Assembly (NCBI GenBank): GCA_008632985.1 | Contig: QPGO01000220.1 | Coordinates: 62,001 to 113,074, forward strand | Reading direction: 5' to 3' | Source of the DNA: Psammoneis japonica | Lineage: Eukaryota | DNA length: 51,074 nucleotides | Part shown: one piece after another, positions 10,234-51,074 of the stretch | Numbering within the stretch: the stretch's first letter is position 1 | How the letters are laid out: every line of letters begins with the position of its first letter | The notes under the pieces: generated by a model | What the model saw: only the letters and a program-made list of their open reading frames with translations | Databases searched by the model: none | Told to the model about the DNA's origin: nothing | Translations under genes and position numbers: made by a program

Positions 10234-10237
10234 TCTC

Positions 10238-10268
<31 letters not shown>

Positions 10269-10292
10269 CCCCCCCCTCTCTCTGTCTCTCTC
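10234..10292 (+). repeat. (CT)n microsatellite; a second one at about 8907-8932
   Basis: Direct reading of TCTCTC runs. Confidence 0.85.
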
Positions 10293-11104
10293 TGCCTCTT
10301 CTCAATGACCCTGCTTGCTTTCATGAAAATGTGCTGTGCACTGCTGCAGCTGCTTGTGTGTGCATTGCTGCAGAGCTGGGGGAGAAGCGGCAGCGAGGGG
10401 CTCTTTCTCTCCAGGAGAAATGTTTTGCAGCAAAGCATCATCTGCAACACACTCTTGGTTGGTCTTATCTGCTCTTTCCATTTTGCGGCACTCCTCCTTG
10501 ATTGCTCCCCCTTGCACTGCTGTGTTGCAAGAAGAAGTGCGTTTCCAGCTTCGGCGCACAGCCAGTCACAGTGGTTGAAAGGCACAATCGAAGTGCATCT
10601 ATTACATTTTCATCAATGCTGGATAAATTTGTATCCATGACACTGGGGCAATGTCACCCCAACGTCACGTCATGATGACACACTCACACACTTCAACTTG
10701 GGTTTGTACTGAAGCTCCTGTAGAAAAAGCGAACCCTGATGACGTGGCTACATCTTCTGGAGACGGGTGGCTCTGAAAGCCCTTGCCACCCATCAAGGTT
10801 TAGTACAAGCTGCGTAGCATTCTACGGAATGAGGCCAGTCCCACACTTTTTGCGTAAATTCTACGTGGAAACATACCAGCCTTGCAGCAGCAAGCCATTC
10901 GAAAAAAAAATGATCACCGCCTCATCTCCAAAAACATCGCCAAGAGGGTGTGAAGAACGAAGCAACGCTTTCTGCTGTTACGCTTTTGGCCCTCGGGCAT
11001 CTCAATCACACAAACAAGACACTTTTTTTCACTTGACAAGCGGACGGTTGGTCCGTTCTGAAATAGCAGCGCAGTAGAGAAAATACAGCAGCAACAACGA
11101 AACT

Positions 11105-21306: not shown

Positions 21307-21589
21307 CATTTTGGACGCATAATACTGGTTAGTCACGACGGAAAATGTATAGAGCAACATTAATCATGGACCGTCACTACTTTAGCTAGTTGGAATACAC
21401 AGTGCAATACTTGGAATCGCAGATCGATCCCACCCGTAGCGAATTGAATCGAGCGAGTGCTGAGAACTAGAGATTTATTATTGAATATAGAGTGTACCCT
21501 GGGTAGTTTTGATTGCTCAATAAAAAGCAATGAATGATGCTACTGAAATATCTGGTTTTGTGTCCATTAAGATATTGTGCAATGCGGGA

Positions 21590-22715
21590 GCAAGTCTTGA
21601 GAATGCCATCATCACAGCAGGGCTGAATCCCATGCCGGGCTTGATCATTGCCAACCTGGGTGCATGCACTCCAACCAAATGAAGCAGAAAGTCTGAAGCA
21701 AATAAACAGGCCCAGATGAATCAGCACAAAGTTGCTTCGAAAGCAGCAGTGTTGAATTGAACAATTACACAGTCCCATTGCAGAGGTCAGCACATCTGAA
21801 GAAGGGGCCCCAGCAGCTTGCTCAACAGACATCACAAGTCAAGTGCAAAGCCACACATGGCTGCCAGGTTGTCATTGGTGCTGACAATCTCAAGTGTGCT
21901 TGTTGATAGCATGGTTTTGCAAGTTTGCAAAGAGAGGAAAGCAAGCTTGATGACAAGTCCCTCTGAAGCTGATCACACGAAATGGAGAGCTGCACAAGTG
22001 CTCACTTGCTGTTTTGTGGTCAACAAAAGCTGAGCAAGACAAGTGCACTCCACTGGGCTGGCAATCAACAGAGTGCATCATTTCTCCTCCGCACCCTCAA
22101 CAAAGTCCAGCTTTTTTGATTTTTGGCAGCACCGCTTGTGTGACTTCCAGCTGGCTGGCTTTTTTGACTCAAACAATGTCCCTGTTGATCCTGTGTCATT
22201 GTTCCCCCCTTTGTTGTTCTGAGTGCCAGCACTGCCTCTGCCAAACCCAGAACAGTGTTCCTTGATGAGTCGGGAGATTGCGCCTGTGCAGCCAGTCAAA
22301 AAATGACTGAGCTCACAATCGTCGAAGATTTCCGAAAGAGCCTGGTGAAGGAAGTCATTGACATCTTGCATGGAAAGAACATGCCCCCCACTGTCAGAGA
22401 CAGTCAGTCCCTGAGAACACCCCTCAAGGCTTGCAGCATTGTGACAGCTTGGCTGGGCTTGCTGCCTGGTGCGGAGCCAGCAGAGCTCGTGATGCTGACG
22501 ATGATCTGCGGGCAGCAGGCCAGCAGGTGTTGCCGCTCCCTGTGCTCTCCCTCCCTGGACCCAACCCAACAACAGAATCAGAACATGGGTTTGGTGCCTG
22601 GGGAGGTGCTCATATATGGCTCCCAAATCAACAAGTGGATCCCGCAGGGACAAGGCGAAACTCACTGCAAGAACAATGATGCCACCGGTCTGATGATGCT
22701 GAGCAGACACCGGTA
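21590..22715. repeat. Small TpA/CpG-depleted island (degenerate repeat or gene fragment)
   Basis: About 1.1 kb with the same TG/CA-rich, TA-poor composition as 0.4-10.6 kb, between two normal genes. Confidence 0.6.
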
Positions 22716-31518: not shown

Positions 31519-31775
31519 GTATGTGCAAGATTCGTTAGCAAGAAGTAGTTAGTATTCACCAACCGGCAGCCGCAATACCAAGCAGAAAAAAGCCATTCCT
31601 AGAAACAGTGTAGGTAATTGCTAGAGAGCGCCTCTTAGGGTCTTTTCAAAGCCTGTACATCATATTTGTTCGCAACATCTTCCTATTAGTACCCCGGATT
31701 CGCACCGGGTGCATATAGGAGCGCCATTGCTCACGCCAACAACAACGATTATGTGGCTAGAGTTTTCGCCAAAAA

Positions 31776-31865
31776 ATGTATGCAAAAGTCGCACAGATGG
31801 CTATAGCACACATTCAGTAGAGAGCAACATCTTAATTGGACTGCGAAATGGAACTCAACTTTAAC
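31776..31865 (+). repeat. 90-bp dispersed direct repeat, copy 1
   Basis: ATGTATGCAAAAGTCGCACA...GGAACTCAACTTTAAC, about 90% identical to 37611-37700. Confidence 0.9.
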
Positions 31866-32652
31866 GGTACAAGGGTCGCAAAAACAAAATGTTGCCTCTG
31901 GGTTGCTTTTGAATTTACAAGCGACTCGTCAACAGGCCGCCCATGATCCAGTCGGGCAGGGTGGCCGTTCCAATCTGAAATCCATGTGTTTTCGTTGAGT
32001 TGCTGGGGATCTTCCAACGCAATGAGATTGTCCAAAATGTGATCAAAGACTTCCTCGCGTTGGCAGAGGCCACCCCGAAGAATCGACCCATGTGAATGAT
32101 TGTGCCATCTTCCGACTGCTTGTAGCGCACCTTGCGACTTTGAATGTTGGAAGCAGCCATCAGAATGGTTGGCAACGTGGTTGGGTTGAGGTGGTCCACC
32201 AGCGATCCATTGATCCAAACTTCGGTCGGTGGCTCGTCTCCGGTTGCGCTCGGGTGCTCTTGGAGCAGCTCCGGTATTTCTTTGTACTGGATCTTGTGTT
32301 CGATGTGGTGGGCATTCGGACGCCATTCCACCCGAACCTGCGAGCCGACCGTCTGAAGGCTCTGAATGTCTTCGACTCTTTGAAACGGAACATCCTTGGC
32401 AAAGTACCATCGATTGCGGGCTTCCAAGATTCCTCGAAGCACTTCCGGACTGTCCTGAATAGTCGTAGTGTTTGGATGATCGATTGGGGCGTAGGCCATT
32501 TCGGAACGCCCCGGCAGGCCCCATTCCGAACCGTCGGGAAGCAATTGGCGGCCATGAACGTCGCAAAACGACGAGTGCAAGGCAAATTTCGGAATCATCC
32601 TGGCGGCAATGGGCGGTAAATTGCTTCTTCTCACCAGAGAGGACGTAGCCAT
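31832..32652 (-). CDS. Hypothetical protein, apparently frameshifted near 32075
   Basis: 245-aa ORF with normal composition; a protein-like continuation in another frame follows a GGGG run. No family recognised. Confidence 0.45.
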
Positions 32653-32882
32653 TCTTGGCCGTACAATATTTGTGAGCGCTTTACTACGAGTGCCATGGTA
32701 TGGAGCATGTTTTGACGTGGATTCCTTTGATTGATGGTGTTTTTGGAGCGCATTCTCGAAACTTCTCGATGGATCGCTCGAGTCGCGGGATCAAAGTGAT
32801 TCGTGTTTAAGAAGGTTCGTGCCGGTGTCGTAATGACGCGTTAGGAGCTTGAGTTATTATTGTGGAAGAGTCAAATATGGTA

Positions 32883-35800
32883 TCAGGGACCGAAATGAGG
32901 CGGAGGAGGTTTGTAGTCGTACAGTTCATTGCTCTGAAACATCTCTGGGAGCAAGTTGTGAAGAGCCTGGTTGATCAGTAACAGTAGATTTCGGTATTCT
33001 GCTTCCTTGCCGTCGTCTGATATGGCAGACACTAGTTTCTGGAAAGCTCGCAGCGATCCTGTTAGAACAGCACAGTGAGATTTAGCAGCAGGCCACAAGA
33101 GGTTGGATGCTTCATTCCAATCGGCCTTCTTTGTTCCTGTGGTATCTTGGGAAGTATCAAGCAGGCTTGTAAGTGTGTTCGTTCGCAGCTGCTCCACAAC
33201 AGGTACAAGGCTAGCGTGCTGAACGACCAAGGGTGGCTGTTGCTGAGATGACGTTCTCGCAACTGTGATTCGAGCCAGGTGCACCAGATCTCGCTGGGAG
33301 TTGAGCTCATTCTCAACACCACACGAAAATCCGGCCAGAAAGAAACTCAACGAGACAGTGTGGGCGATTGAGAAATGCCCATATTTGACCAATACATTCC
33401 ACAATTGAAGAGGTGACTTGTTCCCTGGATTCATGTAGCACGGCATTGACGCCAGCCCCATTCCATCTCGCCATGATTCACGCAACTCGGCGAGGCTGAG
33501 TGGTCGATTGGCTAACACCATGCCACTTGAGACATTGGAATCGAGCACGACAGGCATTCCTCCAAGAGCACAGACAGCGGCTACAGGTGTCTTGACCAAC
33601 CATCCCTTAGGACCGTCCCAGAACCCAACTCCCACAAGCTCGTGCAGCCACCGTAATCGAAGAGGGATAGATTTTTCATTGCAAACGTGACACCAAAGTC
33701 GTTTCGTGTCCATGAATGTGATGCCTTCTACCACTATGGTGCAAGGATTGGTCATTGGTTCAGGATTGGTTTCACTGCGTTGCTTGTTTTCCTGCGGTAC
33801 GGGTTTGACTGTTTCGGCCCCGTCGTCACCAAGAATCGCACGTTGCACCACACTGAGCTCCTCGTAGAAGCTAAAGCCTCGATCATAATTCACGTAACAT
33901 GGCTCAAACAAGGGACATATTTCAGAAAATACTGCGGCATCATCAGCCGTGATGAGACACTTTTCTCGGAGAATCTCAACAAACTGATCGTACAGGCCTC
34001 GAACGGCGGCACACTGACGTTGGCTTACGCCGTCGTCTCGTGACAAAAGATGACACAGGACTTTCTGGAGCTTTTGCCCATACACTTTCGATTCTTGTAA
34101 GAACGGATAGCGTGCCAACAGATGCATTTGGCCAATCATGTACCGACCCAGCGAGTTCCGCCTCAGAATGGCTGGTTCGGCTGACTTGGAATCACCGCAG
34201 AATGCGGGAACGAGTTTCGATTCAAATAAATGGTCCAGAATCCGTTCCATAAGTTGCTCTCCTGTCAGATGCGACTCGAGGCCCAAGGTGCCAATCACCT
34301 CTTCAACCGTTTCCAATTGGCTGCCTCTTTTCGCGCTCGACAAGGCATCTCGGATGGGAGCGACCAACTCCCACCATCGCTGGAATGTTGCACTACGACT
34401 CATATGGAATCGTAGTTGGACGATGTCCAACGGTAGTCTTCCACAAAGAACGGCATGTACTTTTCCTTAAAATTTCCAAGGGCGCTGGCTTTGTATGGCC
34501 CATCCTCGGGTTGATTCTTTGCTTCGTTCCGAGATAGCAACTTTTGGTACTCCGTGTCGTCTCCCAACAAACAGTACTGGGCGTTGGCCCGCAGCAGAGT
34601 CTTGAACACATTCAGGGTCGATTCCACATTAGGTGGTTCCGGAAATGGATCCAAACCAGTGGCCGCAAACAACGGCCAAATCGCCCGCTTGCTCCAATCG
34701 TACTCTACCCCCGACCGTCGCAACGCTTCCGCCAACAACATGTCGGCAAATACCAGGGTGACCGCCTCGCTCAACATGCGGGCAACGACATACACGCGCT
34801 TGTGCAAACTGGAGTCGGTCCCACCCGTCACGACCAAATCGGGCAGCAAAAAATGCCCCCAATCGTGGCACAAAAAGGTGAGTTCGTGAATCAGGTCCGA
34901 CTTTTGGACACAGGGTAGGCCTGCATTGAGACCGGGACACCAGTAGTTGACTTCTCGTCGCGACTGGGCGGCTCGAAAGAAGGCGCCGTCGTTGACGACC
35001 GTCGCAAAACAGGAGCGCAAGTGTTGGACGGCGTCTTTTTGTAAGAGAGGAACGGTTTCAAGAAACTTGGCACAGGCCGTGCCGTCGTCGTATCCAATGG
35101 ATATTGTTCACTGGGGAGGATAGTCGGAAGAAGGTGACATGTGAGACCAGTGTTTGCGGGTCTTGTAGTGAATGTGATTGGCGCAATATGTCGACAGGTT
35201 GGCGTCCCGAGGAGAACACTTGCATCCGATCATTTTCTTTTCGTGATATGACAAATTGGTGGCTTTGACGACAAAGATATCGTCAAATCCAAAAATGCCA
35301 TTGGTATCTTGCGCTGTCTTTCCACGTGACGACCGTGCTTGGCGCTTGCTCTTGTCAATGTAGCCCTCGACTTTGTTGGTGTGGAACTCCATTTGGATGG
35401 TTGGCTCTGTCTGCTGTTGGGAAGGTTCTTCCTCGAGACCGACATGACGTAGCGAGGGCCCATGTTGCTGCGAACCAGTGCCAAACTTCCAAGACCACAC
35501 AATCAAATTTGCGCGAGCCCAGACGCGTTCTCCATCCATTGGTTTATAAGTTCGATAATGCTTGGCATAGTTCTTTTTGTAATTGTTTGTGTCGTCAACA
35601 AGTCCCTGATCATAAGGGAGCAGCAGCATTTGTTCCCACATTACGGCCTTAGTCCAGTAGTAATTGTTGTTGTCTGATGAATCATCGTTGATTCGGGACA
35701 AGAGCTGTTCCGCCAATGGCTGAAGGCGCTGTGCCACTCGTTCAATGGAGGCATTCGACGTGTAAACGCCTCCATAGGGATCGACCAGTTTCACGTCCAA

Positions 35801-36004
35801 GCCATATGGGCGAAAAAACGAACAGAATTCGTCGTACTTGTGGACGCTCGAGGTAACCAGGTAAAGGATACGCCTTCCTCTTCTTTGACGAGGTGCGATT
35901 ACAGGACGGGGGTGTTTGAGGAGTTGCTTGGCACTGAGGACATTTCCTGAATCATCCTCCTCTGAATCCTTCTTTTGTTGTATGTGTTGGCTGTTCTCCT
36001 CCAT
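32883..36004 (-). pseudogene. Multidomain gene: Ham1/ITPase-like + HDxxH helical domain + ThyX-like C-terminus, interrupted by an in-frame TGA (35110-35108) and a frameshift (about 34405)
   Basis: Ham1-like ILYLVTSSVHKYDEF, KVEGYID, FGFDDIF, SYHE...KCSPRD; middle HELTFLCHDWGH; ThyX-like KYGHFSIAH..LSFFLAGFS, LWPAA...VLTGSLR...EAEYR. ORFs 35108-36004 and 34400-35020 are in the same frame. Confidence 0.6.
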
Positions 36005-36289
36005 ACTTAAGACGTCCTTTGTAGTGTTATGAATCCTTTTCGGAACAAGCTTCGGTTCGTTCTTGTGTTTTTGTTGTCGAGTCGAGTGTCAAGTCGAGGA
36101 TATCTCATTCCCGCTTGTTGTGACTCCCGCGCACAATACTATACTGTAGGGCCCTACCTCACGCACGTTTGACGTTCTGGAGTTCGACGCACGTTTGAAA
36201 AAATCCAAAAAGGACTAACGAGCAACCTGGCCAAACATGCACAATTTGTATTCTGTGCAAACGTTGAACATACACCAGCAGCCATTCTA

Positions 36290-37398
36290 AAACTGTGCCG
36301 TACAAGTACTACAACCAACACATCTAGCGCTGATCCGTCCATCCAAGAAATCATTCACAAGATCGACAACGAGTGGGGACCCTGCATCGGCCTGTACGTG
36401 CATGGCTCCTCTGTCTTTTTGGAAAACACGCCAGGATACACCCCAAAGGACATTGACTTGTTGGCCATTGTAGATGACGACGACGGCCAATTGAAACGAG
36501 AAATAAAATGCGCCTCTCCGGATTCCCAATTCGAATTCGGTCCGTACGAAGTGTCTGTCTATGCCAAGTCGTTTTGGTTCAAAAAGCTGGCGGCCATGGA
36601 TTTGACCATGATTACGTGTGCGTATCTGCCCTCTCGTTTCGTCCTAAGGGAATTGCAAGATCCGCGAATGAAACAATTGACATGGAAAGAAGCAGAGAGT
36701 CGGTTGGAGCTCGTCCAGTCGGTGTGGAGTTATGCGAATACACGTGGATCAAGGCCAAACGGGTACTGGATCGCTGGGAGGATCCCTACAAGTCGAGCAA
36801 GAACGTGTACTTTGTCTTTCGTATTCTAGAATTGGGCTGCCAATTGTTGACTCACGACAAAATTGTGGATTTCGATGCGGCCAATCACCGATACGTACAA
36901 ATCCAAAATCTCTACCAAACCTACAACATTCAGCCGGGGGAGTTTGCAGTCGTTGAGGCTGCCCTGGCACGTGCCTATGAACAAGAAATCTCTCGCTTCC
37001 AAGCGACCGTATCTCAGCAACAGCCGAAACTTGCGCTTACTAAAGGGATTGATCCTGCCAACGCGCAAAGAAAGGACAATTGCAGTATTTGCTTTGGTCC
37101 CTGCGAGTCGGCGCAGAAAGCAAGCGATGAGGTGGAGGTCTCGAGCAACACTTGCACTCTGCTATGCGGCCACAGTTTTCACCTGGAATGCACTATCCAA
37201 TGGATTCGTCACGAAACGAGTAGTACTACGTGTCCATTGTGTCGGCAGGAACTTTGTACCAAAATTGATCGCAAAGCAGCCATCCAACGAGAGTTGGAGC
37301 GTCGAGGGGTTCCACCACGGCAATTCACAGGGTATCCCGCGACCATTGTAATTGAGAATCAAAATGATCAAAATTCCTTGCCCATCACGGCCCCATGA
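36290..37398 (+). CDS. Pol-beta-like nucleotidyltransferase domain fused to a RING-H2 finger (frameshift about 36732; start uncertain)
   Basis: YVHGSSVF...TPKDIDLLAIV (GS...DxD); WIKAKR...YKSSKNVYFVFRIL; C-terminal CSIC...CGHSFHLECTIQW...CPLCR. Confidence 0.7.
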
Positions 37399-37610
37399 AT
37401 TGATTGAAAGAATGGTAAAGAGTACAGCAATCGTCTCTTGTAAGAGTTGTAATAAGATATTTTCTTTTCCCTTTTATGGAAGCTAGGGTAGTGTTTGTCT
37501 CTAACCTAGCGAAGACTTTGTATCTGCCTATGCTATGGAGCAGCGCGGGGGAGTTCGGCGTATCCGAAAGGACAGACAGGCGAAAGAACCGGGGAACGGT
37601 CGGTCACAAC

Positions 37611-37700
37611 ATGTACGCAAAAGTCGCACAAATAGCTATAGCACACATTCAGTAGAGAGCAAAACCTTGCTTGGACTCCGAAATGGAACTCAACTTTAAC
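37611..37700 (+). repeat. 90-bp dispersed direct repeat, copy 2
   Basis: ATGTACGCAAAAGTCGCACA...GGAACTCAACTTTAAC matches 31776-31865. Confidence 0.9.
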
Positions 37701-38638: not shown

Positions 38639-38762
38639 TGGCTTGGAGCAATACCATTCACGTTACTGTGTGAAAAAATGTTTCGCAGGTTGTTCAGTTC
38701 GTTGTGATCGTTGATCGCAATCAAGCACAGTCAAGGGCGAAAACGGAAAAGATCGAAGAAGT

Positions 38763-38924
38763 TGCAAGGTCTAACGAGATAAAGACTTTAGTGATAACAA
38801 AATTGTGAGCGAAAGACCGAGGTAACGAGGGTCGCTTTCAGCGAAGCCCGTTACAACGGCTTCCGTTATATCTAATAGATTCATTAATACTATATATCAG
38901 AAAAATAGGGTGCGAGACACTGCA
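38763..38924 (-). repeat. 3' LTR (retains 16 TpA)
   Basis: TGCAAGGTCTAACGAG...GAGACACTGCA, direct repeat of 43994-44155; adjacent to the PPT. Confidence 0.97.
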
Positions 38925-38936
38925 CTCTTCCCTTCC
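38925..38936 (-). other. Polypurine tract (GGAAGGGAAGAG)
   Basis: CTCTTCCCTTCC on the + strand, immediately internal to the 3' LTR. Confidence 0.9.
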
Positions 38937-39037
38937 ATGGTTCGAGTGTCGAGAATCATGCGGGACTCAAAAATTTTCAAATTCCAATGGATGAGGATAG
39001 AAGGGAAACCCAAATGTTGGGGAGAAAACCCTTAACC

Positions 39038-42000
39038 TCAGGTACGATACGGTACGACGCGACGAATATTCAATCGTTCTGTCACATGAGGTGCACGTTG
39101 GACCGTGATCGTACCGTTAGCGTGTACTTGAACGACAGGATGTGGACCGTGAGCTCGTGGTTCGAGCTTGGCAGGATCGACAGACTTGAGTAGAACGTGT
39201 CCACCAACTTGAAAATCGTAGGATCGGCGTTTAGCGTTGGCTCGACGGAGATTCGCATTAACAATCGCTTGTCGGTGTTCTTGAATGGCAGCAAGATCGG
39301 CTAGGACCGGCAAGTCAAGAATCATGTCACGTTGAAAAACCATGGCACCGGGTGAAATCTTGAGAGCACGAGAAACCGCACATCGCATTGCATGCATGGC
39401 GGTTGCCAATGCATTGTCCACTAGTTGATTAGCCTGCTCAACATTCTGTGGAGGATAAACATGAAGCAAAGTGCGCAAGACATTTCCAACAGTTTGATGC
39501 ATGCGCTCGCATGCCGCATTGGCTTGTGGATTTCGCGACGTAGTCGGAGCGTCTTCCACTCCCGCTTGTTGCAACAGCAATTGGAAGTCCTCTCCAACGA
39601 ATTCTCCACCATCATCATGGATACAACGGTCAGGACGAGGACAACGAGACAACCAACAATTTTCAAATTGTTGGGCAATGTGAGACGAGGTTTTGTTTTC
39701 GATGCGAATGAGTTCAGTCACATTCGAAACGGCGTCAATGCAAGTCAAAGCGTTGAATTCGGTTTCATGGTTTTGAATTTCAATCTTCCAGGGACCGATG
39801 AGATCAACCGCAACTTCCGTCCATGGCAACAAAGGCGCTTCTCGTTCAGGCAGGTCCCCACATCCAGGGCCCAAAGTTTTCAAACGTTGACAATCAGCAC
39901 AATGAAATCCTTCACAGGATTGACGAAGGGCAGGATGACAGAAATGTGCGCCAACAGTGGAATGCATTCGGTGCACTCCTGCATGTCCCAAAATTCTGTG
40001 ACACCATCGTATGATGTCATGCAGCAACGCCGTTGGAACACAAATTTTCCACGCAGTCGGAGGATCATTCGGTCGAGCACGACAACAAATTACAGGACGC
40101 TGATTCACACATTCCACCACGAAGCGTTCTGGATGTTGTTGTCGCATGTTGTTCAGCTCCACGTCGATGAATTGGTGTTCTTGAATTCATTGCACAGTTG
40201 CAGGGTTTTGCATTTTCCTCGAGAGAAGGACAGTTCAAAAATGATTCACACAATTCGGGGTCGTCCACGACGGAAGAGTAAAATGGAGATGGTTCTTCAC
40301 GACGATAGGAAAAATGAGACACACGGTTTTGGTCGTCCAGTTCTTCTTCATGCGGCAGCACAGCAAGGTCGATCGCCTTAAAATCAATCAGTTTGCCCTT
40401 GTCAGGAGCACACTTCCCTTCCGCAGGAGGGTCCATGCGCGGCAATCTTGAAAAACAATCCGCCAAGAGGTCATCTTTGCCATCAACGTATTCGAAAGTT
40501 GGGGCAAAATCTTCCAAGAAGAGTCGCCCCACCTAAGAACTCGTTGAGAATTGAGCGTGCGAAAGGTGAGATTTTTATGATCTGCAAAAACAGTGCAGTC
40601 AGCTCCGAATGACATGCTCCGAAATTCTTTGAAACACATCACCACCGCCAACAATTCCTTTTCAATCGTAGAGTAGTTCTGTTGTGCTGCGCTGAGTTTT
40701 CGGGACCAGCAAGCCACTGGTTTCCCGTCTTGCACAATTGCGGCTCCCATCTGATGGTCCGAAGAGTCAGTGTAAACATGGAATGGTTTGTTGTGATCCG
40801 GGTAGACCCAAAGGGTGTCATCCAGCATCAAGGTTTTCATGTCTTCAAAGGCTCGTTGACATTCAGGGGTCCATTCCAACTTGCTCTTGCCTGTTAACTT
40901 CGTGAGTGGAGCGAGCACGTGTGAGTGACGAGGCCACATGTTGCGACAATGAGTTGCCGCACCGATGAACGATCGTAGTTGCGTCACAGTTTTAGGTGGT
41001 TGCATTCGCAGCACCGCTTCCACTTTCTTCTTCCATGGTCGGACTCCTGCAGGCGTGAGCCAATGGCCTAAAAAATCCGTCTCTTGGACACACCATTCGC
41101 ACTTGAGTGGGTTAATTTTCAGGTTGTTCTCTTCTAGTCTGGATGACAGCTCATTGAGTCGATGCATGTGAACATCAAACGAATCATCAAAAATTGAGCA
41201 ATGTCATCGATGTAAGTTTCAACATCAATTCCGTTTGCCACTTTTTCAATGATGGCTTGAGCAATGTCGGGAGAGGGTTTCAAACCCATGGCCAATCGAC
41301 AGCATCGAAATTTTCCAAACGGAGTGACGATGGCACACAAATCCTTGGATTCTTCGTCAAGTTCGATGTGACAATAAAACACAGTGAGGTCCAATTTGGT
41401 CAAGTGCTTGTGTCCCGAGCGTCGGTGAATGACGTCTTGAATGATCGGCAGAGGATGGACCTTTCGCTTGAGCACCTTGTTCAACTCTCGAAAATCGGAT
41501 GCCCATCGAACTCGTCCATCCTTTTTGGGAGTTGCAAAAGTTCCGGCTGCCCATTCAGTTGGTCCCACTGGTTCCAGTGCGCCAACATCACACAAATGCT
41601 GCAGTTCTTTCTTAAAAACGGCTTCATCCCTCTTGGACACCTCATGAGCCTTAGAATGGAAGGGGACAGCGTTGGGATCAACTTCCAAGTGAACAGTCTC
41701 ATGCGGACATTTGCCAAGCGTTCCATCAAAGAGGGTTTCATGCTTTTCAAGCACTGCCTGTAGCTCATCACGTTGTTCTTGAGTCAAGTGAGTTTGAGCT
41801 TGCGCCACTTTCGCGGATGACACTTTCTCGCATTTGGCGTCCATCATAAAAGATTGTCCGAAGGCTTCCTCATCGTCTTCGTCCCTCTCCGTCGTCTTCC
41901 AGTGTATCCAACCAATTCTGAACTGAGTTCCAATGATTGGATTGCTTCATTGGGATCGACATTCCCAACCACTTTGTCACTCCAAATCGAAAATCAAGCA

Positions 42001-42538
42001 CGATTCCGGCCTTCGACAAAAAGTCTTGTCCCAAAATTATGTCATGCTTGCATGGGGCATCAAAAACTTGAGCCGCAATGCTGTCGACTTGTTTTGACTT
42101 GTCAAATTCTGGCAATGTCAAGTCCTTCACAATGACGTGTTGGGAGGATTCATGTCGTCCGGCTGCCGTCTGAAAGCTCAACCGTCCTTCATCGTTCATG
42201 GTCGGATTCGCTCCCTTCGGCAAAACTCGAGAATGAACAAGAGTGTCAGCACCTCCTGAATCCAATGACACGCGCGACACTCGCTTGCTCTCTTGATTTT
42301 GAATGGCACGCGCCGCCATCAACGTCGTTGGCACCACATTCAATGGTTTGGGAGTCGCAGTTTTAGGGGTTGGTGCAGCGCACTCCAAAACGCCGCCCAA
42401 TTTTTCTTCATTCACAGCATGAGATTCCATCAGGTCTCCCACATTGTCATCAACATTAAAACATGTGTTTTCTTCACAATCACACGAAACATAAAAAGAT
42501 TGAGCGACACGCTCTGACTCGGGCGCTTCCGTCCCTTG
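39038..42538 (-). pseudogene. pol: pol: aspartic protease, reverse transcriptase, RNase H, integrase (several frameshifts)
   Basis: [55 protein letters not shown]...[21 protein letters not shown] zinc finger, VAVDLIGP, IHDDGGEF, NPQANAACERMH, and GPH (GPY module). Confidence 0.95.
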
Positions 42539-43760
42539 TCAATTACGCCAACTTCGTTGGCCTTGATGGGTGCGACCATTCTGATCGCATCCATTTCCAC
42601 CTCGCATCTCACGAGGCCCTCCTTGATCAAAATGGTGCGACTCCATTTGCCAGTCACCAGGAGGAGCTGCTCCAGCCGGATTTCCATGGCCTTGGGTGTC
42701 ACCGTTGGCTTGGGTGCCGTTTTGATTTTGACAATGGGATCCATTCCCTTGAGAATTCTGGGAGTCATTACAATTGCCGTAACCTCGGCCTCCATGTCCT
42801 CCTTGATTGCCACAATTGCCACGTCCTCGACCTTGGAAGTTGCCACGACCGCCTCGACCTTGGGGTCCTCTGCCTTGGCAGTTTCCTCGGCCTCCACCAC
42901 GGCCTCCGCCACAACCGCCACGGTCGGACCTCGGCCGACAGTTTTGGCTTTCTGGATTCAAAATGCAATCCTTCCACTTGTGGTCGTGATTCGCATGCAC
43001 CGGGCATCTAGATTCTGGATCCGTTCCACCACTGTTGCCACGAGAGCGTCTTGAAGCTTGAGACGAAGCACTGTTGCCTTTCCTCTTCTTGTCCTGCTTC
43101 TTGTTGCTGCTCTTGTCAGCAAAAGATTTCTCATTGTTCACACAACCAATGATCTCAGCGAGAGTGTCGTTCGCTGTCGCTCGTCCTGCTCGAGTGTGCA
43201 TCTCACGCCACGGACGAGGGAAGCCATCGAACATCATCTTTTTCTTCTGAGCTTCGTTGACTTGAGGAGCATTTCCCGGAAGTTTGTTGGAGCACCGAAT
43301 CAAGGTTTCCATGCGATCCGCATGCGCCTGCACTTCAGATTTGAATGGTTTTTTCAAAGTTGGCAAACATTCAATCATCGCATCACGCGCTTCATTGTCA
43401 CAATGAGACAAGTAAAAACGATTGATTTCCTGATCAAAACGCTCGACAGTTTTATCGGCATCATCAATTGCATTGGTCAAATTCGCCCATTTGTCCTCTG
43501 CCGCATCCGCAAGCACTTCCTCGAAATTTTCGAACAACTCCTCGCCAGCAGCACACTCCAGTTTCACAGCAATTTTACGAAAACGATCCTCAACGAATGA
43601 CAATGCTTCAACACCATGAGTGCCATCAAAACGCGGACACTTTTTTGTACGAGTGCTGCCGTCATCACACGATTGGGTCAATTTCACGTCCTCCAAGTCA
43701 GAATGCTCAAATTTAGCTTCGTGGCTGATGCAAGGCTCCTTCAACGATTCACTCATCATG
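42539..43760 (-). pseudogene. gag: gag with CHHC zinc knuckle and Gly/Arg-rich tail
   Basis: CPVHANHDHKWKDC, basic KKQDKKRK and RGG repeats; located between the 5' LTR and pol. Confidence 0.85.
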
Positions 43761-43993
43761 AAAAAGGGAATGCAATTGTTCAATGGTCCTTTCCAGGGAC
43801 TCTGCCTTTGACTCCAAATGATGCACTCGGCTCGCCAAATTCTGCTCGTGTCGTTTGCACTGTTGCACTTGTTTCTGGTGCTCAATGGCCCAAACTGCTG
43901 CTCTTGCACGCAGTTCTCTTTTCTCACGTTCAGTCAATTTGTTTGCATTGTTCCCAGTCTCCATCCAGTTCTTTGAATCGACTGTAATTACAG

Positions 43994-44155
43994 TGCAAGG
44001 TCTAACGAGATAAAGACTTTGGTGATGACAAAATTGTGAGCGAAAGACCGAGGTGACGAGGGTCGCTTTCAGCGAAGCCCGTTACAACGGCTTCCGTTAC
44101 ATCCAATAGATTCATTGACACTGCATGTCAGAAAAATAGGGTGCGAGACACTGCA
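43994..44155 (-). repeat. 5' LTR (10 of 16 TpA converted)
   Basis: Direct repeat of 38763-38924 with 10 transitions, followed by TSD GAAGT. Confidence 0.97.
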
Positions 44156-44203
44156 GAAGTCACCCCAAGCTACCGGCGTGCGCAGATGGACACCGATGCC
44201 ACG

Positions 44204-44511
44204 AATTGCTGAACAATTGCGCGACACACGTGCCCGAAGGGTGATTGTTGCTTCGGGCACGAAATTCGAGCTTCGCGCACGTAGAGACCGTAGAAAACAT
44301 GCCAGCATTCGAGAATGTCCGATTTGTGTAGATCACACAGCACAGCACCACAGAGGTCATTGATGAAATTACTGCAACGACTCATGCGACTACAATGAGA
44401 TTTTCAACACCACACACTGTGTAGAATGGACATCTGCGCGAAGGAAGAATGTTGCTTCGGGCAACGACATTCGACCTTCGGGCATGTGTATCGCGCAATT
44501 GTTTTGCAATT
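44204..44511. repeat. Inverted repeat (about 37-bp arms) with internal direct repeats
   Basis: AATTGCTGAACAATTGCGCGACACACGTGCCCGAAGG (44204-44240) vs CCTTCGGGCATGTGTATCGCGCAATTGTTTTGCAATT (44475-44511). Confidence 0.8.
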
Positions 44512-44669
44512 TGTAGCAGCGCAGATGGACACTCAAAAGGTCATTTTGGGCGTTTGACCTTCGTGCGAGTCATCCGAGAGCACGCGCCGAAAACAACACA
44601 CAAAACGAAGCGAAAGAAAAGAACGATCTCGGATGAATGCAAAAGCTCTTCATTGCCACAACAAAAAAC

Positions 44670-45290
44670 ATGACCAAAACAGATGGTGATGCCACCATTA
44701 GAAGGTCTACAAAAGACAAATCACTTGAAACTCAGCTTCGCAATGCCGACCTCGCACAAGCCACCCGTCAACAGCAAGTCATTTTGAGAGATGCCAGGCA
44801 AATTCTCGACGACAGAAACAGCACTGCACGTGACTTGAAAAAGGCCAGCAACTGTCTGAAAATTGTTTGTGAAACACTCTCTATTGTTGAAAAAGCTGCT
44901 GTTGAATCAAATGCTGTTTGCAAAAGAATCCAAGATGCCGGGTGTTCCGCGTGCGCATCGAAGGCTCGCGGCTTCGGAGAATTGGAGCCAACGTCTCTGC
45001 CAAGTCCCAACAACAGGGAAGACAAAGAAAATGTCCCATCACCAGCAGCTTCCAGAAAGGCCAATGAACTCATTGAGCTGGAGCTGCTTGCCTTGTGCAT
45101 CAAGACGCCACCTCCTGGCGATCGCAAACTCTCGAAAAAACGAAAAGGGGACACGAAAAATTCAAACGAGTCAACTCAAAAGAAGAAGTCAAATGCAACA
45201 GCAAGATCCAAAAAGTGGCGGCGGGCATGTCACGTCGTGGTCCGTCATGCTGCACACATGGATCTTTTCGACATCGCACTGCTCGCCAAC
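44670..45290 (+). pseudogene. TpA-eroded coding sequence for a coiled-coil/basic protein, upstream of the RNase H copy
   Basis: Protein-like open frame (MTKTDGDATIRRS...KKRKGDTKNS) with no Tyr and almost no TpA. Confidence 0.4.
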
Positions 45291-46690
45291 GAACGTTCCA
45301 CATGCGAGATCTTGAGTGCAACTCCTGCGGCAACGGCTGCGAAGCGTGCGGTGACACTCCAGATGTCACTTTTTGTCATGGATCGCGATGGTCGTTCGTT
45401 GGATTTCGCCTTTGGTTGCTGTTCATCACACCCCACGTCTCAAACACATGCTCCACGTCAAGGTGCTGTGCTTGTTCACACGCCACACGCTTCTCATCTG
45501 CATCTCTGTTGTCATTTTCCTCTGTCGACTCTGTTCAACAACGAGGACTGCATCGCAACCTTTCTGTTCATTGCCTTTTCGTGTTGCAGACTTTTGCACT
45601 TTATGCTCCAAATGGGATGCTGTCACACTTTGATCCTTCGATTTGATGGTGTCTGTCGTGGCAGGAGCAGGGACTCGGGAAGTGGATGGGTGCTTCTGGA
45701 CGGAAAGAACAGCAAGGTGGTTGCCAAAGGTCGACACCACATTGGAGCGGAAGCCACCAACAATGTTGCGGAGTGCATGGGTGTTTTGGGTGGATTGATG
45801 TTCATTCGCAATGAAGGCATTCAGATTCACAACATGCTGCACGTCCAGGGAGATTCGGAGCTGGTCATCAATCAGTTGAAGGGTGAATGCCAAGTGCGTT
45901 CCCCACGTCTAAGACCGCTCTACAACCACTGTCAAAAGATGCTGTGTGACTTTGACTTTGTGGTGGACTTCAAGCACATTCACCATGATCACAACACGCA
46001 CACTGACAAGCTGGCCAACCAAGCTGTTGATTGGCAGGAAAGTTCTGCCGAGTGGTTGTGAGCTGCAAATTCAACCGGCCAGAGCAGGCAGGGGAGACGG
46101 GGGAAAGCATGTGTTTGTGACCAAGTGCCACCAAAACATCACAGCAGTGGCAGAAATGGTTGTTGTGGGACAATTAGAAGAACTCTTTGCTTTCAGTGCA
46201 CAATGACTTCTAGAAGAAATCGATGTCCAATGATTTTTAGCACATTCACCGGGAGCGCAACAGCGTCGCCGACTGTTTGACCAATGAAGCCATTGATGAT
46301 GAGACTGGTTCTCCCAAGTGGTGTTGCTGCAACAGCAGTAAAAAATCACAGGCACAACTGATCGACTGTCGACAACAAAGAATGACAGAGAGTGGTCAGG
46401 TGTGAGCTGTCGTCATTCGATGCTTTGGTGCACATGCCATGGCAAAACACTGCAACATGCCGACATCATCGACCAGCTCATTCTCGTGCCCTTCAACTTT
46501 GCATTGTGTTCCAAACTTTGAGCATGCCCATCCCAGAACCAAAGCTCACTCATGTCTTCAAACTCCGAAACACAAGTTCCCCGACTCTTTTAGTTTGACA
46601 GCTGGAAGCACAGACATTCACAGGCACTTGCTGCTTGCACTGCTGAAAATGAAATGAGAAAGCCGAGAGACGTCCTAAAGAATCACATTG
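45291..46690 (+). pseudogene. Hypermutated copy of a roughly 1.4-kb segment containing an RNase H gene (RNase H domain 45612-46061)
   Basis: Aligns with 49246-50612; RFDG.CRG, TNNVAEC, VQGDSELVI and KHIHHDHN carry Tyr->Cys/His and Arg->His changes. Confidence 0.9.
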
Positions 46691-46699
46691 CGCCCAACA

Positions 46700-48120
46700 C
46701 ATGGAAAGTTTTTCTTGTGGAAGTGAATGAGGTTCTTGTGGCCAACTTCAAAAGGTGCTCCTTGTTCTTTTTGGTCACTGGTGCCATCACTTGCACACCC
46801 AGCTTCTTGGCCCTTGTCACTCCACTGCTCAGCACTGACCCCAGCCACCCCAGTGGTGCATTTCCAGGGCTCTTTGTCCTGAGAAGCAAGATTTCTAAAG
46901 CCATGATGCCTGCCAATTGGAAGCAGCCTGCACTGGTGTGCAGCTGGGCCTGCTCTGCACCCAGCTGCCCCAAGGTGTGATGCAGCAAGTTGCCAGCACA
47001 GAGAACCCCAAAGCAAATCACTGTGATGGCTTGCACCTCACAGCAACTGTCATGCCAGTGCACGCACCTGAGTGTGAATTCCAGTTGCAATGTCAGAATG
47101 GCACAATGCCACCACACTGCCAATGAAGTGTGCTGAGCAGCACGTTTGCTGGGGGCAGCTCTCCAGTGTGGTTGGAACGAAGTTCGAGATGGAGGAGGGC
47201 TCTTTCAACATCCCACCAGTTTTCTCAAAGTCACAGTCAAAGGCTTGTTGGACAATGGCTGTTTGGAGTGGAAGCACTTTTGTGAAGCCCAGCTGTGTGG
47301 CTGCTCATTTTCAGCTTGGAGACCCCTGAATTCGGTGCACCTGAACCTTTTCTTGCTAAGCTGTTGTTTGATGGTCAAAGCAGCAATGCTGGCAATGATT
47401 TCAAAAGCAAGGGAGGCAACAACAATGCAGAAGACAAGAAAGGTGGTTACAACAACAAGATGCACTGCTTTTTTCTTCATTGTGCTGCAGCTTGCTCCGG
47501 GTGCTGAAGCGGTCAATCTGCGATCATGCTCCACATTTCAGTGCAAGGCAAGCCAGTGGGAGGGCCGCCACAAGGCCATCCATGGTCTGTCCACTGTGCA
47601 GATTTTGGCTGACAACCTGCCAGAAGTTTGTTTTCCATGCGGTCAGGACATGTGAAGCTGGGACAGCAAGAGCTTCAAAAAGAAACCAGAGCAGCCTCGA
47701 CAGCAGCAACAAAACAGCAACAATCTGCTGCTGACATCACACCTTCATTGTCATTGCTGCCAACACAACAGCACTCCAAACTGCAGCACAATGCCAGTTC
47801 CACCATCTCAGCCATGACAGCAAATTTGCGACAACCATCTTCACTGGGAGCGCCGCTGGCACCCCCCTCCAAAAGACAGCGGCCAGGGCAAGAAAAAGAG
47901 GAGGGCCTGTGGTGGCAGCTGACAAACTGCCACTGGCATCCACATCACTTCTCGCTGCAGCAGGAGCAGTGGCACCTGCTGCCTCTGCACCGTCTTTCCA
48001 ACAGCACAGCCACATTGTCAACGCGGTGCAGCAATTGCACGGCACATGGGGGAGCTCTGTGGTTCGAGGAGAGAAAAGTGGGGGTGGCTTTTTGCTTTTT
48101 GTTCAATTTTTGGCTTTGGT
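46700..48120. repeat. TpA/CpG-depleted degenerate sequence
   Basis: Same TG/CA-rich composition as 0.4-10.6 kb; normal composition resumes at about 48140. Confidence 0.6.
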
Positions 48121-48307
48121 GGACAGATGAGCAGACCATACGGTACAAGGCATCTTCTATCCTATCAATCAACATCACCAAGCACAATAAAACGATTGAA
48201 ACCCAAAACGAAGCCGTCTTACTTGATGCTGTCTTCTATCTCATCCTTAAAACTAACACAACCTAACACAACAACAGCATCATACCCTCAACAGCAAACC
48301 AATCAAC

Positions 48308-49206
48308 ATGACAGTCTGTTGGGCCAAAAGATCTTGGGACAGCGGCATCTTTGACAATGGCATGGCGTGGGCATCGCTCGAAAGAAAGCACAGCGATGAT
48401 GCTGTTGCCTCGAAACAACTAAAGACCATTATAAACATTCCAGGTGGACCTGGCAATCCCGCTCCCAGCACTGGATGGGGCGGCAAGGTGGAAATGGGAC
48501 TCCTGCTACCTTTGCTAGAAAAAGGAACGGGTTTTGGAAAGATTATTACCATTGCTCGCAAACGCAACATGCCACTAGGACATACAGTGGCAGATGTTGC
48601 CAAGGATTATGCGGATTGTATTGCGGAAAATGTGGAGGAAGGCAAAGCGGATTTAATGTTGGGGTATCCTATGGTGGTATGATTGGTCAATACCTAGCAG
48701 CCAATCATGCCGACTGCTTTGAGCATATCGTCATCGTGGTGGCGGCCTACGCAGTTGAACCAAAAGGCGCAGCCATAGACTATGCCTTTGCCCAAAAGAT
48801 GAGTGAAGGCAAGCCATTTGCCGCTGGAAAGGAGATATCCAAGGCCATCTTCCCCACTTGGCCTTCATTCCTGGCAGGACTAACCGGTGGCATTATGATG
48901 AAAATGATGTACGGCACTCATGCTCCTCATGAATATGCCGCTTCCGATGTCATGGTCGAAGCCGAGGCAGAAAAGGCCATGGACGCTCGCGATGTTCTTC
49001 TCAAGATCAAGGTCCCAGTTCTACTCATTGCAGGGGAGAAGGATGCATATTTCCCCGTTGAATATACCAATGAAACGGTAGAGCTTATCCCAGATTGTAC
49101 ATTGAAAATGTACGAGGGCAAGGGGCACTTGGATGTTGCCATGGACAAGCAGAGAGTCAGCGCCGACATATTGGAATTCATCAAGGCCCATGAGGCAAAG
49201 TCATGA
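48308..49206 (+). CDS. Alpha/beta-hydrolase (frameshift at the GGGG run about 48661)
   Basis: IPGGPG oxyanion region, nucleophile elbow GVSYGG, IKVPVLLIAGEKD and YEGKGH. Confidence 0.85.
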
Positions 49207-49549
49207 TGGAATCAGAATGGCGGGTTGCATTTCGTTCTCGACCACGAACTTTCTACACGCGAGATCTCAGTACAATTCCTACGACAACGGCTACAAAACG
49301 TGACATCTCCGATCTCTTGGATCTAAAAACCTCGCCCCTCTCGTTGTTGTTCATCACAACCAACACGACCACGTCTCAAACACGGTCCACGCTCCACGTC
49401 AAGAAGATAATGTACTTGTACACGCTACACGCTTCTCATCTGCTTCTCCGTTGTCATTTTCCTCTGTCGACTCTATTCAACAACGAGGACTACATCGCAT
49501 TTCTTTTCTTAACCTTCGTGTTGCAGACTTTACTCCTTTACTCCAAATA

Positions 49550-49999
49550 ATGGTGTACTATCACACTGTGATCCTTCGATTTGATGGTGCCTGTCGTGGC
49601 CGCGACAGGGTCTCGGGAAGTGGATGGGTGCTCCTGGACGGAACGACGGGCAAGGTGGTCGCTAAAGGTCGCTACTACATTGGAACGTACGCCACAAACA
49701 ACGTTGCAGAGTACATGGGCGTTTTGCATGGATTGAAGTTCATTCGCGACGAAGGCATTCAGATTCGCAACACTCTACAAGTCGAGGGAGATTCGGAATT
49801 GGTCATTAAGCACTTGAAGGGTGATTACCAAGTTCGTTCCGCACGTCTAAGACCGCTCTACAGGCGTTGTCGAAAAATGCTTGATGACTTTAATTTTGAC
49901 TCGGACTTTGAGCACATTTACCGTGATCGTAACCAGTTCGCGGACGAGCTGGCCAAGGAAGCCATTGATTGGGGAGAAAGTTCTGCCGAGTGGTCGTGA
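49550..49999 (+). CDS. RNase HI (RNase_HI_like / RVT_3 family), intact copy; may have an upstream exon (acceptor TTGCAG about 49526)
   Basis: LRFDGACRG...GSG, TNNVAEY, VEGDSELVI, HIYRDRNQFADELA carry the acidic catalytic residues. Confidence 0.88.
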   Translation: MVYYHTVILRFDGACRGRDRVSGSGWVLLDGTTGKVVAKGRYYIGTYATNNVAEYMGVLHGLKFIRDEGIQIRNTLQVEGDSELVIKHLKGDYQVRSARLRPLYRRCRKMLDDFNFDSDFEHIYRDRNQFADELAKEAIDWGESSAEWS

Positions 50000-51074
50000 A
50001 GCAACATTCAACCTGCCGGAGAAGGCAGGGGAGACGGGGGAAGCACGTGGGTTTATCACCAATAGCTGTAAAGACATCATATTAGTAGTAAAATAGTTGT
50101 TGGGGGATACCGTTAATTAGAAGACCTCTTTGCTTTCAGTGCTAGCGACTCCTCGAAGACACGTTTGCCGAGATCACAACAGTGCCGCCGACTGTTGGGC
50201 AAATGCAGTCATCGATGACGAGACTAGTTTTTCCGAGTGGTATTGCTGCAATAGCAGTAAAAAATCATGGGTACAACCGATCGACTATTGACAACAAAGA
50301 ACGAAAGAGCGTGGTCAGACAAAAGTTGTCGACATTCGACGCTTTGGTACTTTGGTGTAGTCTACATAGCAAAACAGTGCTTCACGCCGATAACGTCGGC
50401 CAGCTCACACTCGTCCCCTGCATCTTTGTATTGTGTGCCAAACTTTGAGTATGTCCATCCCGAAACCAATACTTATTCATATGATATCTTCAAACTCCGG
50501 ATACAGGAGCCCCGTCTCGTTCTAGTTTTACAGCTGTAGAAGCACAGACAGGTGCTTGCTGTTGCTGGCAATGAACTGAGAAAGCCAAGAGACGTCCGAA
50601 AGAATCGCATTGTGAGAAAATATTGAAGTTCAGCTCTTCCTAACACATACTGCAGGGGGGATTTGGATGGAATTCTCTCCAATCACGCCGATCTGCCATC
50701 ATCTTGAGTTGTGCTTTGGTGTCAAAGATAGGAAGATTGAAGATGATCAATGATCAAGCAGGATCAAAGAGGTCTATGACCATTGATCATGGGTGTGTGT
50801 GCTGTCCGAACGAAAATTGGAAAAAACAAAAAGGTAAAAAAAAAAAGTGGGCTGTCGAAATGGCGTTCTGGCGTCGTTCGCCGTCGGCGCCGTCGTGGGT
50901 ACAGTTAGTACGCAACAGGCCGAAAAGTAGAGCAGCCATAGACAAAAGAGATTGGCATCTTTCAACCATTCTCATAAAGGATTCGCTCGATAGTAATGCG
51001 CCCATCGCTGAAAACGACTCTACTCTCATGGCAGATGTGTCCTCCACTCAAGGAGAGCCGACAGACGACATCGA

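Follow-up and report, generated by a model that had tools for sequence, protein, structure and literature searches.

A Ty3/gypsy element with unequal terminal repeats

The 51,074-nucleotide stretch of Psammoneis japonica DNA analyzed here (contig QPGO01000220.1, positions 62,001 to 113,074; hereafter the window) carries a long terminal repeat (LTR) retrotransposon whose two LTRs differ only at TpA dinucleotides. A repeat search and direct comparison revealed two direct repeats of 162 nt each, copy A at 38763-38924 and copy B at 43994-44155, which are identical at 152 of 162 positions and align without gaps. The same five bases, GAAGT, flank both LTRs as target-site duplication (38758-38762 on the left, 44156-44160 on the right). 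Together with the TG...CA ends, these matching flanks indicate that the LTRs belong to one insertion. Pfam recognized, on the minus strand and in this order, an aspartyl protease, RVT_1, RT_RNaseH_2, Integrase_H2C2 and rve. The order gag, protease (PR), reverse transcriptase (RT), RNase H and integrase (INT) thus runs downwards in coordinates, and a polypurine tract (38925-38936, a purine run on the minus strand) abuts copy A. Consequently, copy A is the 3′ LTR and copy B the 5′ LTR, both read on the minus strand. With TG..CA LTRs, a target duplication, a polypurine tract and the order PR-RT-RNaseH-INT, the carrier is a Ty3/gypsy LTR retrotransposon on the minus strand; a primer-binding site was not among the features recognized. 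Its pol frame is broken into at least four pieces.

No further copy of the element was found within the window. BLASTP searches with the gag protein gave 27 hits at near length (best 46%) and four at shorter length, Ditylum brightwellii being among the relatives, and the relatives of the element's proteins bear diatom names. Gag paralogues of the same family were not found in the protein searches, where relatives reached at most 51% identity. A gag pattern scan of metagenome contigs returned 108 pattern matches and no relatives, and a 22-nt LTR word had no match in metagenome and viral contigs.

The two LTRs differ at 10 positions, by transitions without exception. At all ten, copy A has the A or T of a TpA, and copy B has either TG (six sites, at LTR positions 28, 34, 62, 124, 130 and 134) or CA (four sites, at 107, 111, 126 and 131). 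LTR A contains 16 TpA, ten of which are altered in LTR B by one change each; by comparison, none of the 10 CpG of each LTR differs between the copies (Fisher p = 0.0026). Of the 162 LTR positions, 32 belong to a TpA, and the probability that all 10 differences fall among them by chance is 2.5e-8; the one-sidedness of 10:0 has p = 0.002. An earlier note on this DNA, made from the letters alone, had reported these same counts. Direct comparison confirms them, and the two example strings quoted there are exact. The note had called the changed copy the 3′ LTR, which domain order and polypurine tract correct to the 5′ LTR.

Polarity of the TpA changes

The LTR pair alone is without direction. TA versus TG/CA is symmetric, and the pair fits equally well a C to T change at CpA/TpG in copy A resembling fungal repeat-induced point mutation (RIP). 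Such RIP-like or methylation-driven changes in the 3′ LTR, with copy B ancestral, would involve the commoner chemistry, C to T deamination, and the fungal RIP index makes copy A look 'RIPped' (TpA/ApT 1.23). Copy B also contains an internal repeat of a 9-mer and an 8-mer that is not present in copy A. This last argument was dropped after simulation, which gave 59/20000 versus about 0.04 x 396/20000 and is non-discriminating.

Conserved tyrosines provide a direction. Gag was aligned with 22 homologues, comprising 18 of the 27 near-length hits and all four shorter ones, with the nine weakest (P0019-P0027) left out. In gag, ten columns reach 40% Tyr or more, and the residues found there in the window are His (4), Cys (4), Phe (1) and Tyr (1); the columns with Tyr in 20-22 of 21-22 homologues have His or Cys in the window. 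The Tyr content of gag is 0.4% in the window versus 4.1% in the homologues. Of the 120 homologues listed for pol, 73 reach 1000 amino acids or more, and the first 40 of these 73 entered the alignment. Here, 26 columns have at least 70% Tyr, and the window shows Cys at nine (all TGY), His at eight (all CAY), Tyr at six and another residue at three, two of which sit in frameshift overlap zones. These pol Tyr replacements are single transitions in 17 of 17 cases, and Tyr is retained at 23% of its columns versus 61-96% for other conserved residues. For gag and pol together, His or Cys stands at 25 of 36 conserved-Tyr columns and Tyr at seven. Since Tyr is encoded by TAY, and His (CAY) and Cys (TGY) are its two single-transition products at TA, this pattern supports TA as ancestral.

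A pair of paralogues to the right of the element, 1.3 kb long, 79% identical and 4 kb apart on the plus strand, points the same way. One copy (45409-46690; 9 TpA, 42 CpG) lies inside a TpA-poor block at 44515-48139. The other (49337-50612; 58 TpA, 79 CpG) lies in normal host-type DNA and serves as reference state. The 52 aligned TpA of the latter have become CA (20), TG (17) or another dinucleotide (9) in the TpA-poor copy or have remained TA (6), and none has become CG. Thus, 37 of the 46 changed TpA are single transitions to CA/TG, and the reverse case, a TA in the TpA-poor paralogue where the normal one has CA or TG, does not occur (37:0). The 76 CpG of the unconverted paralogue correspond to CG (32), TG (15) and CA (15) in its partner, with five cases the opposite way. 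At the protein level, seven of nine partner Tyr are now Cys or His. Both paralogues overlap open reading frames (ORFs) with an RVT_3 (RNase H-like) domain, at 44637-46061 in the converted block (1 Tyr, 22 His and 22 Cys) and at 49304-49999 in the unconverted DNA.

Read contigs were also compared with the window. They derive from one sample; 1885 contigs of run X1 were aligned at 80% likeness or more over 6.3 kb, contigs of run X2 cover the flanks only, and none of run X3 match. The site-by-site statements made here from reads rest on 40 of 1006 difference rows listed. At 44021, within LTR B, the window has G, and 11 of 11 contigs have A, the letter of copy A.

The Tyr columns, the 37:0 ratio of the paralogues and the contig A at 44021 are three independent tests, and they show that TA is the ancestral state and that the change runs from TA to TG or CA. 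This direction had been assumed in the earlier note, which would have taken TG/CA as the ancestral state in a family consensus or outgroups as a refutation; homologues and paralogue both show TA. The interior of the element is, moreover, strongly TpA-poor and not TpA-rich (rho(TA) 0.14-0.18). We therefore regard the opposite polarity as very improbable.

TpA-poor blocks and their limits

Loss of TpA extends through most of the element. Between the LTRs, the 3′ interior end with the integrase C-terminus (38925-39456, minus strand) is spared, with 16 TpA in 532 nt (30 per kb), a normal density. Only three Tyr codons are left in the integrase frame, and all of them lie in this part (39047, 39218 and 39455). 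The converted interior (39457-43993, minus strand) comprises gag, PR, RT, RNase H and most of INT and holds 42 TpA in 4537 nt (9.3 per kb), with rho(TA) 0.14, rho(CA/TG) 1.38 and rho(CG) 0.92; its left edge is fuzzy, at about 39460-39640. In terms of rho(TA), gag reaches 0.10, LTR A 1.13 and LTR B 0.53, with host DNA at about 0.5-0.6.

Three further blocks of the window show the same depletion. The largest, of 9.9 kb (590-10466), has 16 TpA and 68 CpG in 9877 nt (1.6 TpA per kb), with rho(TA) 0.02, rho(CG) 0.12 and rho(CA/TG) 1.83. A second one, of 1 kb (21574-22613), separates two host genes, lies immediately upstream of the ORF for ELP1 and has 3 TpA (2.9 per kb; rho(TA) 0.05, rho(CG) 0.24, rho(CA/TG) 1.74). 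The block right of the element that holds the converted RVT_3 paralogue (44515-48139) has 15 TpA in 3625 nt (4.1 per kb; rho(TA) 0.07, rho(CG) 0.52, rho(CA/TG) 1.66). Intervening host stretches have 33-42 TpA per kb. Converted blocks are thus almost free of TpA (rho(TA) 0.02-0.14) compared with host genes at about 0.5, and runs of 1-kb windows reach rho(TA) of 0.1 or less with rho(CA/TG) of 1.6-2.06. The GC content of the blocks is unchanged (0.47-0.51). Their limits are sharp, within about 100-200 nt, with a few hundred bases left between them and host ORFs; the host genes of the window are long uninterrupted ORFs.

The 9.9-kb block is complex sequence and not a simple repeat. None of 22 ORFs in it contains a Pfam domain, and its stop words in six frames are TGA (503), TAA (16) and TAG (11). 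A Pfam scan of 28 ORFs of the TpA-poor blocks gave no hit above the cut-off. Within the 9.9-kb block, a 104-nt unit is present as a tandem duplicate at 4614-4821, 99% identical.

Host-type DNA (10467-38762 and 48140-51074) has rho(TA) of about 0.5-0.6, rho(CA/TG) of 1.16-1.21 and normal CpG. The low host rho(TA) may reflect the same bias acting weakly across the genome, or simply the usual avoidance of TpA. As an alternative for the blocks, selection and not mutation might have removed TpA, through RNA stability, avoidance of nucleases or sensors, or codon usage. TpA is under-represented in most genomes, including the host genes here (rho about 0.5). We consider selection hardly credible as the cause of the blocks, as Tyr residues invariant in 40 of 40 homologues have been destroyed, the pol frame is broken, the TpA-poor blocks are without recognizable genes, and two LTRs of a single insertion differ.

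Directly right of the element, at 44194-44521, lies a very high-copy repeat resembling a miniature inverted-repeat transposable element, with a summed contig depth of up to about 9900. Its 55-nt inverted arms are 82% complementary, and two of the arm mismatches are TA versus CA.

The fact that the 3′ LTR and the adjoining 530 nt are spared allows two explanations. In the first, the boundary of an affected domain falls within the element, which is why only one LTR is changed. The left edge of this domain would lie at about 39460-39640, with the domain taking in the 5′ LTR (10/16 TpA converted) but not the 3′ LTR on the side of the host gene (0/16). In the second, a real mutator converted the element from end to end, and ectopic gene conversion, with an unconverted family member as donor, later brought its 3′ 0.7 kb (LTR A plus 530 nt) back to the former state. 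In favor of the second, the X1 contig depth of 1300-4900 over the element, versus about 58 on the unique left flank, indicates that the family has tens of copies. The spared tract also stops exactly at the end of the element, where homology stops, and LTR A is without any private change. On the other hand, the three remaining blocks likewise stop short of host ORFs by a few hundred bases, which fits a boundary of chromatin type, and a private TA to TG change at 39107 lies inside the spared tract, as expected of a graded edge. We therefore judge later restoration by gene conversion to be unlikely and favor a domain boundary within the element.

A probable post-integration process acting on both strands

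The changes affect both strands to a similar extent. TG and CA outcomes stand at 6:4 in the LTR and 17:20 in the paralogues, Cys and His at 13:12 among the former Tyr codons, and the LTR outcomes are interleaved. Beyond the dinucleotide itself, no context preference was detected among 44 conversions. Over both LTRs, 10 of 16 TpA but 0 of 260 non-TpA positions and 0 of 20 CpG have changed, a rate at least 43-fold higher per base (95% bound). The LTR pair together with the intact target duplication indicates that the process acts after integration. As both strands are struck equally and in an interleaved manner, the substrate would be the chromosomal duplex over many cell generations and not RNA or single-stranded cDNA. 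The earlier note had proposed a context-specific A:T to G:C mutator on both strands of integrated DNA, and Tyr codons, paralogue pair and TpA-free blocks support this.

Editing before integration would have to act on the element's RNA, by an ADAR-like A to I deaminase, or on its cDNA, through a deaminase or errors of the reverse transcriptase. A>G-hypermutated retroviral LTRs have reportedly been ascribed to a double-stranded RNA deaminase. Reverse transcription includes two synthesis steps that are specific to the 5′ LTR, the copy changed here, which can be counted in favor of such editing. A further point is that ADARs are described as favoring a 5′ U (bioRxiv 10.64898/2026.01.13.699255). 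RNA editing would, however, produce identical LTRs and changes on one strand only, and here both strands are equally affected and interleaved. The same signature is found on a paralogue that is not a retroelement and on 10 kb of anonymous DNA. Furthermore, cDNA editing would be expected to peak immediately upstream of the polypurine tract, and it is this part of the element that is spared. Editing before integration hence appears highly unlikely.

The following sequence of events is consistent with these observations. A:T to G:C transitions would arise at the adenine of either strand of the palindromic TpA step. A converted site would no longer be a target, which explains why TA never becomes CG. 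The substrate is probably silent, gene-free DNA, comprising the Ty3/gypsy insertion and at least three neighboring blocks, and host genes and a few hundred adjoining bases would be spared. In older domains, CpG would also have decayed to TG/CA, most simply by deamination of 5-methylcytosine in silenced DNA. Since the young element has lost TpA and kept CpG and other blocks have lost both, TpA conversion appears to be faster than CpG decay. In the presumed end state, pyrimidine-purine steps are nearly all CA/TG.

As to the chemistry, our first choice, put forward tentatively, is deamination of adenine to hypoxanthine at TpA. A mutagenic modification of T at TpA is less likely, and error-prone repair synthesis with a WA>WG bias somewhat less likely again. 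The earlier note had seen repeats as the targets, as in RIP. We found no sign of a homology trigger: one paralogue has escaped although its converted partner is 4 kb away, as has the 3′ 0.7 kb of an element present in many copies. The trigger thus does not resemble repeat homology, and targeting looks regional instead.

Support and conflict in the read contigs

All readings of the window depend on its letters being correct. Consensus errors could in principle create TG and CA, for instance if nanopore base calling confused A and G at modified bases or if polishing failed in a repeat; among nanopore substitution errors, A<>G transitions are described as predominant (PMC8486125). The contigs differ from the window by 807 transitions and 196 transversions. 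Among the rows listed, 15 places between 39107 and 44021 have contigs that carry nearly or only another letter (98-100% share), and all 15 are transitions, which suits an artefact as well, as does the window G at 44021 that occurs in 0 of 11 contigs. Neither side of LTR B offers a unique anchor, whereas LTR A abuts unique DNA, and private homopolymer insertions break pol. A candidate nanopore error motif (TAG>TGG/TAC>TGC) was not found in the nanopore-error papers checked and would fit only 2 of the 10 LTR sites.

Several observations speak against such errors. The local words are identical in both LTRs, so that a context-dependent error would affect both alike. Strand-symmetric miscalls would give ties of TA and CG and not a clean loss, and the host genes of the window are intact long ORFs. 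At 39613, the converted C of the window is present at a depth of 66 of 2861, about that of a single copy (flank 58), so that this conversion is present in the reads and private to the window copy. The window letter is missing or nearly missing at just 15 places among the rows listed. If these rows are the most extreme ones, as we infer, the TpA-poor interior is otherwise carried by short-read-like contigs (unique depth 58, up to 315 kb). A sequencing or assembly artefact is therefore improbable as a source of the signature. The read check of LTR B that the earlier note had called for has a partial outcome, at one of the ten sites: the contig letter at 44021 fits TA as ancestral, and the window's own G at this site is not seen in the contigs.

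Six of the 15 places are A>G or T>C changes outside TpA; they may mean that the process has a weaker and less specific component, or may be errors. The window copy carries 1-2 extra bases at 40213, 40527, 41189 and 41883 (also at 38978), in four of these five cases within a short homopolymer, and they break the pol frame. Contigs without them make up 86-100% of the depth at four places and 68% at 40213. These bases could have arisen by genuine slippage or could be mistakes in the assembly of a repeat. In the unique flank, at 38463, the window has G and contigs of X1 and X2 have C at full depth, which may be due to allelic variation, to variation between strains or to a misassembled letter.

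What the data show is the signature itself, the direction in which it runs, the regions over which it extends and a rate in excess of background, and we consider a real, post-integration, regionally targeted hypermutation of TpA to TpG/CpA very likely. Some of the data nevertheless weigh against this interpretation. From family to window, only four of the 15 contig-discordant places are TA to TG/CA (39107, 39613, 42465 and 44021), two run in the opposite direction (TG>TA at 39431 and 39623) and nine lie in contexts other than TpA, so that the copy also bears changes of an ordinary kind or of another pattern. None of the 11 contigs has the G at 44021, and the 40 of 1006 rows listed neither confirm nor deny the other nine LTR-B letters. 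Contigs lose rare variants, and the runs come from a single sample, possibly the source of the assembly itself. The private extra bases of 1-2 nt in homopolymers could be assembly errors in a repeat. A 96-nt direct repeat in normal DNA (31770-31865 and 37605-37700), 90% identical, differs by five transitions and five transversions with no TpA bias. The evidence comprises one window and one LTR pair. For the chemistry, the chromatin-based targeting and a defence function, we infer rather than observe.

The copies of the 96-nt repeat are 5.8 kb apart, with a RING-finger ORF (36478-37398) between them; Pfam found nothing in the four ORFs scanned there (31915-36088).

Comparison with known systems

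RIP, known from Neurospora and other fungi, shares several features with the process described here. It is dinucleotide-specific, consists of transitions only, affects both strands, ruins integrated mobile DNA and can approach saturation. RIP, however, converts CpA to TpA and leaves AT-rich DNA with many stops, whereas here TpA becomes TpG/CpA, the GC content stays constant and the creation of stops is impossible. Instead of C>T at CpA with TpA gain, AT enrichment and new stops, we find the reversed direction, and the stops of the blocks are almost only TGA. That the direction is opposite to RIP, as the earlier note had it, is borne out by Tyr columns, paralogue pair and constant GC content. 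Nor is there a sign of a duplication trigger acting over the shared length: the paralogue at 49337-50612 stands unconverted beside a partner that is 71% converted, and in the multi-copy element the 3′ 0.7 kb has escaped.

APOBEC3/AID and ADAR enzymes likewise cause clustered, context-dependent transitions against retroelements, and ADARs share the preference for a 5′ U. APOBEC enzymes produce G>A/C>T on one cDNA strand, unlike the symmetric, post-integration changes in the chromosomal duplex seen here. ADARs act on RNA, on one strand and in a looser context, and cannot make two LTRs differ. Editing by ADAR and subsequent retrotransposition predicts one strand and identical LTRs; the window has 13 Cys to 12 His, and LTRs that differ within an intact target duplication.

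CpG decay through 5-methylcytosine yields the same products, TG and CA, and probably explains the loss of CpG in the older blocks (rho(CG) 0.12-0.52). It leaves TpA, in contrast to the situation in the young element, where CpG is intact (0/20 LTR CpG changed, interior rho(CG) 0.92) and TpA is largely gone (rho(TA) 0.14 versus about 0.5 in host DNA; 10/16 changed in the 5′ LTR). Polymerase eta makes WA>WG errors in somatic hypermutation, that is A>G at adenines preceded by T or A, on both strands (A>G and T>C), and in addition changes at ApA and transversions. In the LTR no ApA site was struck, and the paralogues show strict TpA dominance.

The closest counterpart is found in Bigelowiella natans. 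The earlier note had regarded the signature as undescribed. A preprint of 2026, however, reports a TpA-only A:T>G:C hypermutation of integrated DNA from nucleocytoplasmic large DNA viruses (NCLDV) and virophages in this alga (Mettrop et al., bioRxiv 10.64898/2026.01.13.699255), and it is the one description of TpA/TpG hypermutation that our literature search returned. According to the preprint, the mutation rate of two integrated viral regions in mutation-accumulation lines is about 1000 times that of the remaining genome, with a de novo rate of about 1e-7 to 1e-6 per site per generation that varies among lines. In these regions, 230 of 231 mutations were A>G or T>C, all of them at TpA according to the authors. 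The preprint further lists 124 clusters of 1-kb windows poor in TpA and rich in CpA and TpG, enriched in reverse-transcriptase and DDE domains. It puts forward an ADAT2-like deaminase as a candidate and views the process as a defence against foreign DNA (all bioRxiv 10.64898/2026.01.13.699255). Its main text makes no mention of diatoms, LTRs or CpG (bioRxiv 10.64898/2026.01.13.699255), and the listings of our literature search contained no relevant diatom report on retrotransposon hypermutation, TpA, 5-hydroxymethyluracil or RIP.

The present case is therefore a further instance of a process reported only once before, now seen in a different lineage and with a retrotransposon as target. The same signature in a distant diatom-like genome means that the process is not peculiar to one alga. 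New here are the distant lineage, the retrotransposon target, the timing after integration, the near-complete conversion, the co-occurring CpG loss and the domain edges beside host genes. The process can run close to completion, with 10 kb left with 16 TpA, and stops sharply beside host genes. Two lineages with the signature enable a comparative search for the enzyme, among genes common to carriers and missing from non-carriers. Ages of transposable elements derived from LTR divergence are made wrong by the process, and such elements may be hidden from homology searches because their Tyr-less proteins keep long open frames. A natural TpA adenine editor of duplex DNA would also be of interest for base editing.

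As a tentative hypothesis, for which we claim less than even chances, distant lineages of the Stramenopiles-Alveolata-Rhizaria group (a chlorarachniophyte and a diatom-like genome) may share a TpA-specific defence on duplex DNA that turns adenine into inosine or modifies thymine. It would be aimed by domains of silent chromatin and not by repeat homology, and active promoters would set its limits. Together with the decay of methylated CpG, it would leave invading DNA without TA and CG. Coding capacity would be lost with all Tyr codons, TATA boxes and TAA/TAG stops, no new stop codon would arise, and the GC content would remain constant.

In the window, as reported for B. natans, A>G and T>C changes occur at TpA and give TpG or CpA by strand, and TpA depletion and CpA/TpG gain are regional and clustered. 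We find A:T>G:C transitions at TpA only and on either strand, with the caveat that nine of the 15 contig-discordant places lie in other contexts, in discrete regions with the host spared, and TpA loss accompanied by CpA/TpG gain. The 1-kb windows here lie beyond the cut-offs given in the preprint (rho(TA) 0.43, rho(CA/TG) 1.52; bioRxiv 10.64898/2026.01.13.699255). Set against the B. natans data as given there, host TpA here is 3.3% versus 6.0%, the genes are intron-poor and the lineage is another one. The target is an LTR retrotransposon plus anonymous intergenic blocks in place of giant-virus and virophage inserts, and the evidence here is comparative, whereas in B. natans it consists of de novo mutations in accumulation lines. 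Finally, conversion has gone much further in the window (rho(TA) 0.02-0.14 versus 0.45), and in its older blocks CpG is depleted as well, a point on which the main text of the preprint is silent.

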